Assembly (NCBI GenBank): GCA_000004695.1
Contig: CM000151.3
Coordinates: 6,240,001 to 6,304,000, forward strand
Direction of reading: 5' to 3'
From: Dictyostelium discoideum
Taxonomy: Eukaryota
DNA length: 64,000 bases
The position numbers were made by a program, and so were the translations under genes. This document shows positions 35,918-41,930 of this stretch, one piece after another (positions within the stretch are counted from its first letter, which is position 1; every line of letters begins with the position of its first letter). The notes under the pieces were generated by a model. That model saw nothing but the letters and a program-made list of their open reading frames with translations. It ran no database searches and had not been told where the DNA came from.

Positions 35918-37640
35918 TTAAGTTGAATTTCTTCTTCTATGATTTGAATTAAAGGGTTTTGCTTCTGCTAAATAATTTTTATTTAATTCCAAAAGACTTT
36001 GAAAGTTTACATATAAAAAGTCATCAAAATTTGCATTTGTATTTTGATTGATTGTAATTGAATCTAAATTTGATGTTGTTGCAGTTGCAGTTGCAGTAGT
36101 GGAAGAAGTTGATGGAGGTGAAGTTGTTAAAATAGTGGAAGATTCCTTATTTTGATTTTGATTTTGAACAAAAGGTTTACAAGATTCAGCGAAATCATCA
36201 GAAACTTTATAAATTTCTTTTCTTGGATCAAAGTAACTTGTATCTTGGAGATTTTCAATCTTTGGTTTAAAGTATGGTTCTTGAGTTAAAATTGTTTTCC
36301 AATTTATTGATTTAAAGAATGGATGAGATTTAATTTCTTCAGCACCATTAAAACCTAATCTTTGTCTTGGGTCTAAAGCTAACAATTTATCAATTAAATC
36401 TCTTGCTTCAGGACTCATATCTTCAGGCCAAGAAATATTTCTTTGAAGAATATTTTGAAAAGTTTCTTGAACACTTGAACCATTAAATGGAGAAACTCCA
36501 CAAAGAAATTCATAAAGTATAACACCTAATGAAAACCAATCAGCTGATGCACCATGACCAATTCCTAAAAGAATTTCAGGTGCTAAATAATCTGGTGTAC
36601 CAACACAACTTAATTTTCTATGTATATTATGTGGTGGTAATGGTGGTGTTGTTTGTTGTTGTTGTTGAGATTGTTGTTGAGATTGTTGACCAGTAGTTGT
36701 AGTGGTTGTAGTTGTAGTAGTTGTAGGAATATTTGAAATTGGTTGTTGATTAATTGGTGGTGGTGGTATAAATCCTTTTACACCCATCATCATTGGAGAT
36801 ATTGGTTTATCACTATTCAATAAATTTAATGAAGGAATTGATGGTGAAGATGATGCTGAAAATAATGACTTAGATTGAGCTAATGATAATAATTTCTTTT
36901 CTTTCTTTGCTGGTATTGCAGTATTGCTTGGAATTGGAGTTTCAGTATTAATAACATGACCACCTACCATCGTTGCTCCAGTTGTATTGTTGTTATTGTT
37001 ATTGTTATTTGTACTACTAATATTTGAACCAATAGTATTAGAACCACCAATATTTGATACTGATGATGATGATGATGATTGATTATTTTTACCAGATAAA
37101 GTTGGACTAAAATAAGAAGGTGGTACAACAGTTTGTCTATCTAATAATCCAACCTTACTAAGACCAAAATCTGTTAATTTTATATGGCCTTTCTTATCTA
37201 TTAAAAGATTATCAGGTTTAACATCACGATGAACAATACCATGACTATGTAAATATTCTAATGCCAAGACAGTCTCTGCAATGATCATTTTTGCCATATT
37301 TTCATCCATTGACCCTAACATTTGTAATAATGAAAAGCAATCACCACCTTGTAAATATTCCATAACCAAATAATAATATTCCTTTGTTTGAAATGAATAA
37401 TACATCTTTACAACAAATGGATTACTTGTATAGGCTAAAATATTTCTTTCAACTTTGACATGATCCAATTGGTTCTTCTTTATCATATCAGATTTCTTTA
37501 ATCTCTTTATTGCATAAATATCACCAGTTCTAATCTTTTTAGCTAAAAATACTTTTCCATATCCACCTTTTGTAATTGGTTTAATAAATTCAAAATCTGA
37601 TATAGTTGGTACACCTTTTGGTTTATATTCAATTTGCTAA

Positions 37641-37692
<52 letters not shown>

Positions 37693-38141
37693 CAGTATCA
37701 AAAAATATTATTATTTTGTTATTTGTTATTATAGTTTTTTTTTTTTTTTTTTAATATTTACAGTTTGATGAACAGGATCAGAATCAGATCTTAATCTACC
37801 GCCTAATGGAGTTTGAGATAATTCTTCTTCTCTTGGTGATTTTAAAATTCTTGGTGAATTAGTTCTAAAAATTCTTGGTGAAGAATTAATTACATCATCG
37901 GCTCTTTTCAATGCATTTACTTTATCAGAGATTAAACTTTGAATTTTTATTGCCAATTCTCTATTATCATCTTTTGGATCAAAATTTTTAATAATATCAT
38001 TCATAATATGAATCATTTTTAAATTTTCTTTAATTCCATTTTCAACTGCAAATAATGCAATTTCTCTTAATTCTATAATCATTTTCTATATTAAATAAAA
38101 AAATAAATAAATAAGAAAAAAGTTAATAAAAAATAATAAAT

Positions 38142-38177
<36 letters not shown>

Positions 38178-38614
38178 ACATACTCTTTTTTCGTGTGGAA
38201 TATCATTTGATCTTGTTAATAAAATCTTTGCAACAGCTCTTAAATGATCATCAACATTCATGGCTTTCATATCTTCTTCATTTGCCATTGCACATATTTT
38301 AGAATGATCCTCTAATAACGATGAATGAATTGGTTCTTCACAAATTCTACACATTGCCATTTGACTATCATCGTTATGGTCTTCAATCAATTTAACAGAT
38401 GGTATCTCTGAAAATGATCTTGCTAATTTTCTATATGGTTCTTTTTTAATTTGTTCCTCTTCTTTGTTTGGACTAAAACTTTTTGATCTAACTAATGGCT
38501 GTTGTTGTTGTTGTTGTAAATTTAATTTTTTAAAATTATATTTTTTTGATTGTTTATAATTTATTATACAAAAATTTGGTATTCCATTTTCATTTTCATT
38601 TTTATTATTTTTAA

Positions 38615-38651
<37 letters not shown>

Positions 38652-39820
38652 TGGTTGAAATGGAATTTGTGAAATTTTTAATTTTTTACATGGTGAATTA
38701 TGTGGTGATGAAATTGGTGATGATGTTGGTGAGGGAATGATTGATATTAAAATAAAATTAATTAAAATTAAAAAGAAATTATTATTATTATTGTTAAGAT
38801 TATTTTTTATTTTATTATTGTTAGTATTATTTCGATTCATTTAATTAATTCAATTCAGAAAAAAAAAATTTAAAAAATAAAAAAAAAAAATAATTACCCT
38901 CTTTAAAATATATTCGTCACTAGATGTTTTCTAAAAAAAAAAAAAAAAAAAAAAAATAATTAATTAATTTGGTTAATATTGTTTCCAGGAAAAAGTTAGA
39001 TATTTTTTTGATTAAAAAAATAAAAAATAAAAAAAAAAAAATTTATAAAATCCATTATCATAAAAGTGTTTTTTGTAAAAAAAAAAAAAAAAGAAAAATT
39101 AAAAATAAAAATAATTTGATTAGTGAATTAAATATCTTACCAAATCATTTAGTCTTGGGTCTAATAAAAATACAGGTGACTCGTAAGGTTTACGAGAAAG
39201 TGGTGAATTTGCAGATAGGGAGTGATGAACATGTGTTTTTTTGAATGGACGTTTATTTTTTAATTTTCTCTCACTAATTTCATAATGGTTTGTGTTGTAA
39301 ATGTTATCATCATCCTCATCCTCTTCTTCATCCTCTCCACTAGTACTCGTAGTATATTCATCATGTTCTTCTGATGTTGAAAGGGTTTCTTCTTCAGATG
39401 ATGATGATAATAAATTTTCTTCACTTCCAACCACTTTTTTTGTAATTTCACCGCCACCACCCCCAACATTTGTTTCTAATGGGGTTGGAATAATATCTTT
39501 TGAATGAATTGGTTCTTTAATATTTAAATTTGTTTCATTTTTTGAATAAATCTAATTAAAAAATTAAAAAAATTAAAAAAAAAAATAAAGACATTAGTGT
39601 TTGCAAATATTTGCATTTTTAATAACATTTAAAAAAATAAAAAATTTATAATAAAACCTACAATATCAGAAACCCTTCTAGAAAGTAAAGGTGGTTTAAT
39701 AGTTGATGGAGTTTCAAGTGATTGAGTAGGTTGGCTTGATAATGGGGTTGTTAAGATATTATTATTTGCTGAAATTGTTTGTGGTGAAGTAATCGATTGT
39801 GGTGGAGGTGGTTGGGCAAT

Positions 39821-39906
<86 letters not shown>

Positions 39907-40481: not shown

Positions 40482-40537
<56 letters not shown>

Positions 40538-41029
40538 TTCATCAATTCTATTCAATTCAAAATCATATAGTTGATCAAAACCATTATTTTTATTTATTGA
40601 AGATGAAGGGGATCTATCTTTTGATTCAATACCAAGTAATTGATTAACTCTTGCATATTTTGCAATGATTGTTAAAAGTTTAATTACCAATTCTCTACAT
40701 TTACCTAAGATTTTAAATTGTGTTGAATTTAAAATTGATAGTAATTCTTCAGCAAAGCTTTCATATTGAATCTCCTCTTGTTTACAAAATAAACTAGCTA
40801 TATCAATTAATCTTTTAGTTACATCTATATAAATTTGTGATGATTCTAATTCAATTGATGAATTTCTTAAAGTTCTTTTGGCATCCACAATAAAGAGTTG
40901 TAGTCTACCATCTGTATCTTGTTTATTAATTTTTATTATATTTTGTTGTTGACTATTGTACATTGTTGTTATATTTTTTCCACTTCTTCTTAAATCAATT
41001 GATTTATTATTTTTATTATTATTTTTAAA

Positions 41030-41123
<94 letters not shown>

Positions 41124-41145
41124 GTATTATTATTGTTATTATTAA

Positions 41146-41185
<40 letters not shown>

Positions 41186-41350
41186 TATTACATTATCATT
41201 ATTATTTTTATTATTATTTTGATTTACAATTTTTATATTTTTCGTACTATTTATATTATTACTATTCGAAATTACAATCTGGATTATGATGCTCCAATTC
41301 CTTTTTTGAAGGATTTGCCTCTGCATTTTTAAAAATGTTTTTATTATCAT
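35918..41350 (-). CDS. MAST/Greatwall-like AGC protein kinase with a ~190-aa activation-segment insert, multi-exon on the minus strand. Confident exons are 39141..39551, 38184..38498, 37762..38085 and 35918..37636. The first exon 39662..41350 has an uncertain start, and a possible 33-bp micro-exon lies at 38898..38930
   Basis: The last exon reads QIEYKPKGVPTISDFEFIKPITKGGYGKVFLAKK...HRDVKPDNLLIDKKGHIKLTDFGLSKVGLL...(insert)...KLSCVGTPDYLAPE...FFKSINW plus an AGC tail FDPRKE. Upstream exons are linked by GTAAAT/GTATGT/GTAAGA/GTAGGT donors and AG acceptors, all in phase 0. They encode DUF1908-like helices (LQLFIVDAKRTL...ELLSILNSTQFKILGKCRELVIKLLTIIAKYARV; MCRICEEPIHSSLLEDHSKICAM) typical of MAST kinases. 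Confidence 0.65.
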
Positions 41351-41930
41351 TCTCTGGATCTAGAGATGGTAATGGAAGACTTCCTTTTCTTAGTCTTCTA
41401 ATTGGTGACGGTGTATCATTATTTTTATTATTATTTTTATTATTGTTGTTATTATTATTTATATTATTATTAATGCTATTATTTATATTATTATTATTAT
41501 AATTATGATTATTATAATTATTATTTTTATTCGTATTCGTACTTTTATTATTAATATTATTATCGTTAATAATATTATTATTTTTATTGTTATTATTTAT
41601 GTTAATAGTATTATTTTTTATAATATTAATATTATTATTTTCGTTTATATTATTATTATTATTTCGAGGTGATGATATTAAAGAATTATCGGAAATTGAA
41701 TTTGAAGAAGAAATTATTGGTTTAAAACAATCTGAACCACTAGATTTATTCAATTTAGTATCACTTTCTCTTCTTGATGTTTTGGAACCGGTTGGAATAT
41801 TTCCAATTTCAATATTTTCTTGTTTTAATAACCTATTCAATGCTAAAATTGGCGATTCTTTTGAACTATTACTATTATTACCATTGCTACTGTTGCTATT
41901 ATTATTTTCATTTGAATGATTAATGTTCAT
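41262..41930 (-). CDS. Asn/Ser-rich ORF of 222 aa; either a separate small gene or the true 5' exon of the downstream kinase
   Basis: MNINHSNENNNSNSSNG...SPIRRLRKGSLPLPSLDPENDNKNIFKNAEANPSKKELEHHNPDCNFE. It overlaps the first kinase ORF (39629..41350) by 89 bp in a different frame; I could not find a convincing intron joining them. Confidence 0.3.
   Translation of the reverse strand: MNINHSNENNNSNSSNGNNSNSSKESPILALNRLLKQENIEIGNIPTGSKTSRRESDTKLNKSSGSDCFKPIISSSNSISDNSLISSPRNNNNNINENNNINIIKNNTININNNNKNNNIINDNNINNKSTNTNKNNNYNNHNYNNNNINNSINNNINNNNNNNKNNNKNNDTPSPIRRLRKGSLPLPSLDPENDNKNIFKNAEANPSKKELEHHNPDCNFE

Follow-up and report, generated by a model that had tools for sequence, protein, structure and literature searches.

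The two overlapping 5′ reading frames of Dictyostelium discoideum pkgA, a Greatwall/Rim15/IRE-type kinase gene, are probably halves of one ancestral first exon

The gene considered here, pkgA of Dictyostelium discoideum, encodes an AGC kinase whose closest described relatives are of the Greatwall, Rim15, IRE and MAST types. It lies between 41930 and 35918 on the minus strand of a 64,000-nt stretch (NCBI GenBank assembly GCA_000004695.1, contig CM000151.3, positions 6,240,001 to 6,304,000), called the window below; coordinates are those of the window and its features are on the minus strand. Animal Greatwall (MASTL) has a kinase domain that is split at the same place as that of pkgA, by a much longer activation segment of 460 aa (PMC12024977) compared to 193 residues in pkgA. 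Animal MAST1–4 belong to the same broad AGC lineage and have a helical region N-terminal to the kinase, but unlike pkgA their activation segments are only 37 aa (PMC12024977). The kinase domains of plant IRE/IREH1 and fungal Rim15 are 55–65% identical to that of pkgA, and the activation-segment insertion is common to them. Fungal Rim15 also has a C-terminal receiver domain (PF00072 in the fungal matches), for which the window pkgA protein gave no Pfam match. We did not detect a PDZ match C-terminal of the pkgA kinase, where only ~130 low-complexity residues follow the kinase domain. MASTL is not known to have a counterpart of the zinc finger and helical bundle found before the kinase in pkgA. 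We conclude, with a probability of roughly 85%, that the locus is a single gene, pkgA, for a Greatwall/Rim15/IRE-type AGC kinase, and that its first exon was ancestrally uninterrupted.

The gene itself is already catalogued and its kinase class is known, so the refinement given here is at the level of annotation. DDB0185113 is entered as pkgA, AGC/MAST, in the printed part of Table S2 of the 2006 Dictyostelium kinome (PMC1420674), and the entry has the YAIK, HRDVKPDN and DFG motifs; it is the same gene. In a 2025 review the Dictyostelium kinases of MAST lineage are two, pkgA and DDB_G0272282, both with a large DFG–APE segment and neither with DUF or PDZ domains (PMC12024977). An infection RNA-seq preprint (10.1101/590810) reports expression of pkgA and places the gene among TOR-pathway kinases. 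Functional work on pkgA is nearly absent from the searchable literature, and no mention of the conserved 216-codon upstream part or of the 11-nt frame break described below was found in the accessible papers.

The composition of the window is typical of Dictyostelium, with 12–34% guanine plus cytosine (GC) and coding tracts of poly-Asn and poly-Gln. The list of open reading frames (ORFs) of the window gives six open segments between 41930 and 35918. Obvious GT–AG splices arrange the sequence from ATG 40963 into six exons (40963–39662, 39551–39141, 38930–38898, 38498–38184, 38085–37762, and 37636–35918) that encode 1367 aa. The five introns are 110, 210, 399, 98, and 125 nt long, have 5–14% GC, and are all GT–AG. 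The curated pkgA protein, as far as its sequence is printed in Table S2 of PMC1420674, begins MYNSQQQ..., that is MYNSQQQNIIKINKQDTDGRLQLF / MYNSQQQNIIKINKQDTDGRLQLFIVDAKR. Translation of the window from ATG 40963 reproduces 399/399 of these printed residues, including the lengths of the Asn and Gln runs, which assigns the window to the reference lineage of D. discoideum. The curated start Met, taken from this printed part, falls within the second of two long 5′ ORFs and downstream of (AAT)n tracts.

These two ORFs overlap in different frames, as the initial annotation of the stretch had described. ORF1 (41262..41930) encodes 222 aa and ORF2 (39629..41350) encodes 573 aa; they have 89 bp in common (41262..41350). 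The distance 41930–41350 is 580 nt, which is not a multiple of 3, so the two frames differ, with ORF2 offset by +1 from ORF1. The gene ends proposed in that annotation, 35918 and 41930, also stand: the pkgA stop codon occupies 35920–35918 and ORF1 starts at 41930. The orthologous loci of the sister species D. dimigraforme (L001) and D. citrinum (L002) were obtained through kinase-search matches. Each has a continuous ORF that matches ORF1 plus ORF2, 747 aa in D. dimigraforme (L001 7033..9276) and 650 aa in D. citrinum (L002 7239..9191). In a three-way DNA alignment both sister species read CCAGATTGTCAATCTGTTGTAATTTCG, and the window reads CCAGA, a gap of 11 columns, then TTGTAATTTCG. The 11 nt absent from the window relative to both species are TTGTCAATCTG, at 41278/41277, with a TTGT direct repeat on both sides. 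The flanks of the gap are otherwise conserved, and the differences are mostly at third positions. Upstream of the break, the ORF1 frame from ATG 41930 (41278..41930) aligns colinearly with the 5′ portion of the uninterrupted ORF in each sister species. Four out-of-frame codons after the break (PDC, then NFE and the stop), a premature TAG at 41262..41264 closes ORF1. Downstream of the break, the ORF2 frame (39662..41277) carries the poly-Asn tracts, the curated ATG, a helical domain and low-complexity poly-Q/KEQQ sequence. Re-insertion of the 11 nt gives a first exon of 760 codons without stops that aligns end to end with both sister species, and the protein becomes 1693 aa compared to 1367 aa in the curated model.

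The initial annotation had considered a frameshift or assembly error in an (AAT)n tract. A frameshifting gap is present, but it lies in unique sequence and not in AAT repeats. The two perfect AAT runs that encode poly-Asn (41185–41147 and 41110–41030) are both read in frame by ORF2, and the break is ~90 bp upstream of the first of them, which places the frameshift outside the repeat tract. The comparison points to the overlapping ORFs as halves of one ancestral first exon, apparently split by an 11-base deletion rather than by a repeat-tract event or an intron. The ancestral exon would have been ~2.3 kb, from ATG 41930 to the donor at 39662, and would have encoded an N-terminal segment with the motif RLRKGSLPLPSL, a poly-Asn linker and the helical domain. 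Loss of 11 nt at the TTGT microhomology would shift the frame by +1, ORF1 would stop four codons on, at 41262, and the remainder of the exon would then appear as a second, overlapping ORF.

More distant dictyostelids were reached through the helical domain (40912–40625). An exhaustive HMMER search with window 41005–40616 as the query against 1.84 billion representatives returned four matches: D. citrinum KAN0015605.1, Synstelium polycarpum P0003, Cavenderia fasciculata XP_004360271.1, and a further dictyostelid protein, P0123. In 4/4 of these, RLRKGSLPLPSL is found 65–140 residues upstream of the helical domain in the same protein, and in the three that are full length the zinc finger and the kinase belong to the same polypeptide as well. 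RLRKGSLPLPSL (41396–41361) is the most conserved motif of ORF1 and is kept in Cavenderia, Synstelium and P0123; it was traced within Dictyostelia. A second ORF1 motif, KE-x-SP-I/L, is also common to these dictyostelid proteins, and the segment KESPILALNRLL...SSG (41861–41736) is conserved. The full architecture of pkgA is found in the orthologues of Cavenderia fasciculata (XP_004360271.1, 1416 aa), Synstelium polycarpum (EP01133_P008970, 985 aa), D. citrinum and D. dimigraforme. The shared order is RLRKGSLPLPSL, helical domain, acidic linker, RSKSF, zinc finger, four-helix bundle, split kinase, FDDFLYVNF and an RRRNS C terminus. Identity to the window over the kinase exon runs from 52% (S. polycarpum, P0003) to 87% (D. 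citrinum, over an alignment of 45% only). In contrast to the window, the N-terminal motif of these orthologues is in frame with the rest of the protein, and their DFG–APE distances are shorter. One protein with the motif and the helical domain in the relatives shows that a single-gene architecture is ancestral across Dictyostelia, and it rules out two genes as the ancestral state.

Several points weigh against an ancestral exon broken by a deletion. The deletion is read from the deposited sequence, and the transcript structure is predicted from it. The curated 1367-aa protein was matched to the window over its first 399 residues only, the part that is printed. The curators of the 2006 kinome checked their models for upstream conserved sequence and did not flag pkgA, at a time when there were no other dictyostelid genomes (PMC1420674). 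Finally, one GT–AG pair (41275 to 40918 or 40912) formally restores the frame. This pair comes from an enumeration of every GT..AG pair of 40–1500 nt that keeps the frame open. The donor GTAATT at 41275 with AG 40918 or 40912 (358 or 364 nt, ~9% GC) provides the only intron-like in-frame solutions near the break; the other enumerated pairs use non-consensus donors inside conserved coding sequence and were rejected. Such an intron would join ...HHNPD to (Y)TDGRLQLF, remove the poly-Asn and keep ORF1 in the kinase protein. Its base composition is intron-like, and GTAATT is a real donor type in pkgA, where it is used by intron 3. However, it would also remove KSIDLRRSGKNITTMYNSQQQNIIKINKQD, 30 residues that are almost invariant in three species, and in the sister species this GTAATT simply encodes V-I. 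The acceptors have no special context, the start Met of the curated protein (from its printed part) would lie inside the intron, and the length is above the usual 60–250 nt (PMC1420674). We consider this splice quite improbable. The absence of an obvious intron between the ORFs, noted in the initial annotation, is confirmed in that no plausible short GT–AG intron bridges the frames, and the long intron offered there as an explanation is improbable: its only intron-like versions, those from the 41275 donor, would take out conserved coding sequence.

Two independent genes, a 222-aa gene that ends at 41262 and a kinase gene that starts downstream, are what the current annotation implies, and they were another of the explanations offered initially. 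The printed part of the curated protein does start at 40963, and the 298 nt from the ORF1 stop to Met 40963 have 6.4% GC and look intergenic. This look is that of the poly-Asn (AAT)n tract, however, and the ORF2 frame is open for ~400 nt above the curated ATG, as far as the break. In the two sister species both parts belong to one ORF, and in more distant dictyostelids to one protein. Two genes at this locus are thus very unlikely, and they drop out as the ancestral state. The full-length protein could also come from programmed +1 frameshifting by the ribosome, at the ORF1 stop or ahead of it (GAA-UAG-U read as GAA-AGU, for example). ORF2 is in the required +1 frame and the overlap closes at the stop codon, but the sister species have a single uninterrupted frame and no such arrangement, so the frameshift would have had to originate instantly from the deletion. 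Only AAT repeats follow downstream, with nothing able to form a stimulatory structure, and we give this mechanism next to no weight. A –1 shift at the A-AAA-AAG heptamer within the overlap was also rejected, since it leads into a frame that stops at once.

The ancestral single exon leaves two possibilities for the gap itself. ORF1 has a ratio of nonsynonymous to synonymous substitution rates (dN/dS) of 0.12–0.28 against either sister species, and the rest of exon 1 has 0.21–0.29. In the non-repeat codons of ORF1, the changes specific to the window lineage are 8 synonymous and 3 non-synonymous, and additional stops or indels are absent. This absence of decay suggests that the gap either is recent, within the species or the laboratory lineage, or is a sequence error. 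If it is an artefact, which is a special case of the single-gene conclusion, the living strain keeps the 11 nt and its pkgA is intact, with 1693 aa. The gap could then have been introduced during cloning or assembly, in a stretch with poor coverage that has AT-rich repeats on both sides. The undecayed ORF1 is what an artefact predicts, the flanking AAT-rich tracts are hard to sequence, and the kinome authors report genome-sequence errors in four kinase genes (PMC1420674). Set against these points, an 11-nt loss in unique sequence with TTGT microhomology is atypical of base-calling or homopolymer error, and no independent D. discoideum sequence of the break site was recovered in look-ups. Exact-product look-ups of ORF1, ORF2 and the last-exon ORF gave no match, and neither did a metagenome scan for either allele, with or without the 11 nt. 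The only near-identical Logan contigs (SRR26869257 and SRR28564542) are genomic and cover the last exon only. An artefact is possible but somewhat doubtful. We lean toward a real deletion because the loss lies in unique, relatively GC-rich sequence at a 4-nt microhomology, a pattern characteristic of spontaneous microhomology deletion and atypical of a base-calling error.

If the sequence is correct, initiation at 41930 would yield no more than a 222-aa N-terminal fragment. A full-length mRNA that starts upstream of ORF1 has eight ATGs ahead of Met 40963, and such an mRNA would give the fragment and little kinase. Kinase could be made by two routes. Met 40963 would give the 1367-aa protein but, because of the eight upstream ATGs, would need a transcription start of its own inside the 6%-GC Asn tract. 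The alternative would be a conserved in-frame ATG at 38840 inside intron 3. The products of either route would lack RLRKGSLPLPSL. This motif agrees with two consensus sequences, the basophilic RxRxxS of Akt-type kinases and the RxxpSxP of 14-3-3 mode I. Yeast Rim15 is controlled by Sch9 and PKA, and by analogy RLRKGSLPLPSL could be a nutrient-signalling input; we infer this role, like the use of the start codons. A fuller proposal can be built on these elements. The deletion would be genuine in the laboratory lineage, the RxRxxSxP motif (Akt/PKB- and 14-3-3-type) would be lost, and kinase would be made only from the internal starts (40963 or 38840) and would have escaped an ancestral nutrient-signalling input. 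Intron 3 would possibly serve both as an intron of the long isoform and as the coding first exon of a short one, transcribed from an internal promoter. We regard the whole of this proposal as unlikely.

The consequences concern users of the reference annotation in knock-out, N-terminal tagging or modelling work. The curated protein probably lacks 326 ancestral N-terminal residues, among them a motif that is invariant across Dictyostelia, and the reference sequence either carries or misreports a frameshift in the 5′ part of pkgA. If the deletion is real, the reference strain would be a natural N-terminal truncation mutant of its Rim15/Greatwall orthologue. If the gap is an error, the pkgA gene model would have to be extended to 1693 aa. 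This major model organism has no more than two MAST/Greatwall-lineage kinases, of which pkgA is one; its assignment to a kinase class, the split of its catalytic domain and the lack of both DUF1908 and PDZ are already published.

Downstream of the first exon, intron 1 (39552..39661, 110 nt, GT–AG, 11.8% GC) keeps the frame, with RRVSDI joined to IYSKNE as in the D. citrinum model P0121. In the splice model, exon 2 (39141..39551) encodes an acidic and serine-rich linker that ends in ...FLLDPRLNDL. Intron 2 (38931..39140, 210 nt, GT–AG, 11% GC) is 80–86% identical between species, which is unusually high beside the 72–81% of introns 4 and 5. Among its long blocks that are identical between species are TTATAATAATGGATTT and AAAAATATCT..TTTTCC.GGAAACAATATTAACC, and the intron could hold regulatory elements for an internal start. 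A 33-nt micro-exon (38898..38930) encodes KTSSDEYILKR and has conserved splice sites and synonymous substitutions in three species. The equivalent linker (K...KR) joins (P/Q)LVRSKSF directly in Synstelium, Cavenderia and P0123. The micro-exon and its direct junction to PLVRSKSF are supported by the conserved splice sites, the synonymous changes and these equivalent linkers.

Intron 3 (38499..38897, 399 nt, GTAATT...CAACAG; L001 ~9930–10330 and L002 ~9930–10380) is free of internal AG in all three species, with a conserved TACTAAC ~325 nt before the acceptor. The absence of AG was rejected as a statistical oddity; AG-free stretches of 400–480 nt occur several times in the window. ATG 38840 opens a conserved frame that runs into exon 4. 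All indels in the region of this ORF are multiples of three, and its substitutions are biased to third positions. The segment 38769–38650 has an exon-like 90–94% identity without gaps compared to 72–81% with many gaps in introns 4 and 5. The intron 3 sequence is a candidate alternative first exon, possibly transcribed from an internal promoter. In both sister species the automatic NCBI models start the kinase gene at the ATG equivalent to 38840 and end a separate upstream gene just before it. The annotation splits of the pkgA orthologue span 10001–12926 and 7239–11961 in L002 (D. citrinum) and 7033–12747 in L001 (D. dimigraforme). At the start of the intron 3 ORF, the Arg of MNRNNT (window 38828–38837) is encoded by CGA, a codon that is absent in both sister species. 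CGA is a rare codon in Dictyostelium, and its choice is consistent with AG avoidance in this stretch.

Exon 4 (38184..38498 in the splice model) encodes the basic serine motifs RSKSFSP and RKLARSFSEIP and the start of a four-helix bundle. It contains a zinc-finger-like CxxC-x12-H-x3-C motif, CRICEEPIHSSLLEDHSKIC (38351–38292), just N-terminal of the kinase. Intron 4 (38086–38183) interrupts the bundle (38324–37882). Exon 5 (37762..38085, splice model and AlphaFold2) encodes the rest of the bundle, then SSPRIFRTNSPR and RLRSDSDP, and is followed by intron 5 (37637–37761, GT–AG). A family alignment of 32 sequences shows that CRICE...H...C is nearly invariant, with C50 and R51 in at least 90%, and that conserved helices follow. 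Plant IRE/IREH1 and fungal Rim15 have this motif and the following helices in common with pkgA. AlphaFold2 run on the 32-sequence alignment predicts a β-hairpin at residues 47–58 and four helices at 59–173 of the 213-residue query, with a predicted local distance difference test (pLDDT) >90. The model depicts the pre-kinase region as a putative zinc-finger hairpin plus four-helix bundle that is common to IRE and Rim15-type kinases. The helices that the initial annotation had placed before the kinase are thus confirmed, but their label as DUF1908-like is not: there was no Pfam match to DUF1908 (PF08926) on any pre-kinase segment, even at E<=1. A PDB sequence search with the pre-kinase region gave no match, and fold searches returned generic four-helix bundles only, with no MAST entry among the best 50–60. 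A distant structural likeness to DUF1908 has been claimed for IREH1 (PMC12024977).

Exon 6 (35918..37636) encodes the AGC kinase domain, the tail and the stop. It matches Pfam Pkinase with E 5.9e-59, and the YAIK, HRDVKPDN, DFG and APE motifs are intact. The exon comprises the kinase N-lobe to DFG (37594–37163), the DFG–APE insertion (37162–36584), the kinase C-lobe (36583–36314) and the hydrophobic-motif-like tail FDDFLYVNF (36028–36002). Human Greatwall is the best solved match to the kinase domain by sequence (8v5h, 294 bits, E 1.6e-86; 5loh, 292 bits, E 5.5e-86), in keeping with the Greatwall-like kinase gene first proposed. Other solved structures score lower, with Cbk1/NDR at 269 bits and the rest, including RSK and Akt, at <=243. 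Among named proteins, plant IRE/IREH1, fungal Rim15 and an amoebozoan 'greatwall' come nearest. By these match scores, rather than by phylogeny, the kinase domain appears closer to the Greatwall lineage than to other AGC families. The 2025 MAST review places pkgA likewise (PMC12024977). By homology to Greatwall and Rim15, which phosphorylate endosulfine/ARPP19/Igo at FDSGDY, pkgA is predicted to act on a substrate of the endosulfine type and in this way to inhibit PP2A-B55; no paper on a Dictyostelium endosulfine was found in the open-access literature.

In the spliced 1367-aa protein, DFG is at residue 951 and APE at residue 1147, with 193 residues between them, in agreement with an earlier estimate of ~190. 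The distance is 181 residues in D. dimigraforme, 138 in Cavenderia fasciculata, 112 in Synstelium polycarpum, 76 in Acytostelium subglobosum, and 55 in the relative P0006. Three parts of the insert are conserved in the alignment: a flank DFGLSKVGLLDRQTVVPPSYFSP, the core KK.LL.L..SKS..SA.SSPS, and a flank RKLSCVGTPDYLAPE. The excess in the D. discoideum group consists of Ser, Asn, Thr and Gln runs. The insert had been described as either regulatory, as in Greatwall, or low-complexity filler. By the alignment it is the ancestral activation-segment insertion of the family, inflated by low-complexity sequence around a conserved core. The D. citrinum annotation also breaks the kinase inside the DFG–APE insert, into models of 566 aa and 297 aa. 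The likely cause is either a frameshift in the assembly or a gene prediction that failed in the low-complexity insert.

A tRNA scan of the window found none. The downstream neighbour of pkgA is an ORF of 433 aa (34208–35509, minus strand) that matches a syntenic D. citrinum gene with Pfam RTC and RTC_insert (RNA 3′-terminal phosphate cyclase family). The gene order G-alpha, pkgA, RTC, CAP/peptidase C1, diphthine-synthase-like TP_methylase, and TCP-1 chaperonin is kept between D. citrinum and D. dimigraforme. Compared to window 35918–37486, the Logan contigs L003 and L004 (SRR26869257 and SRR28564542) have V in place of I at one position and two extra residues (AT) in the C-terminal Thr/Ala run. 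These differences point to a distinct D. discoideum-like strain in public reads.

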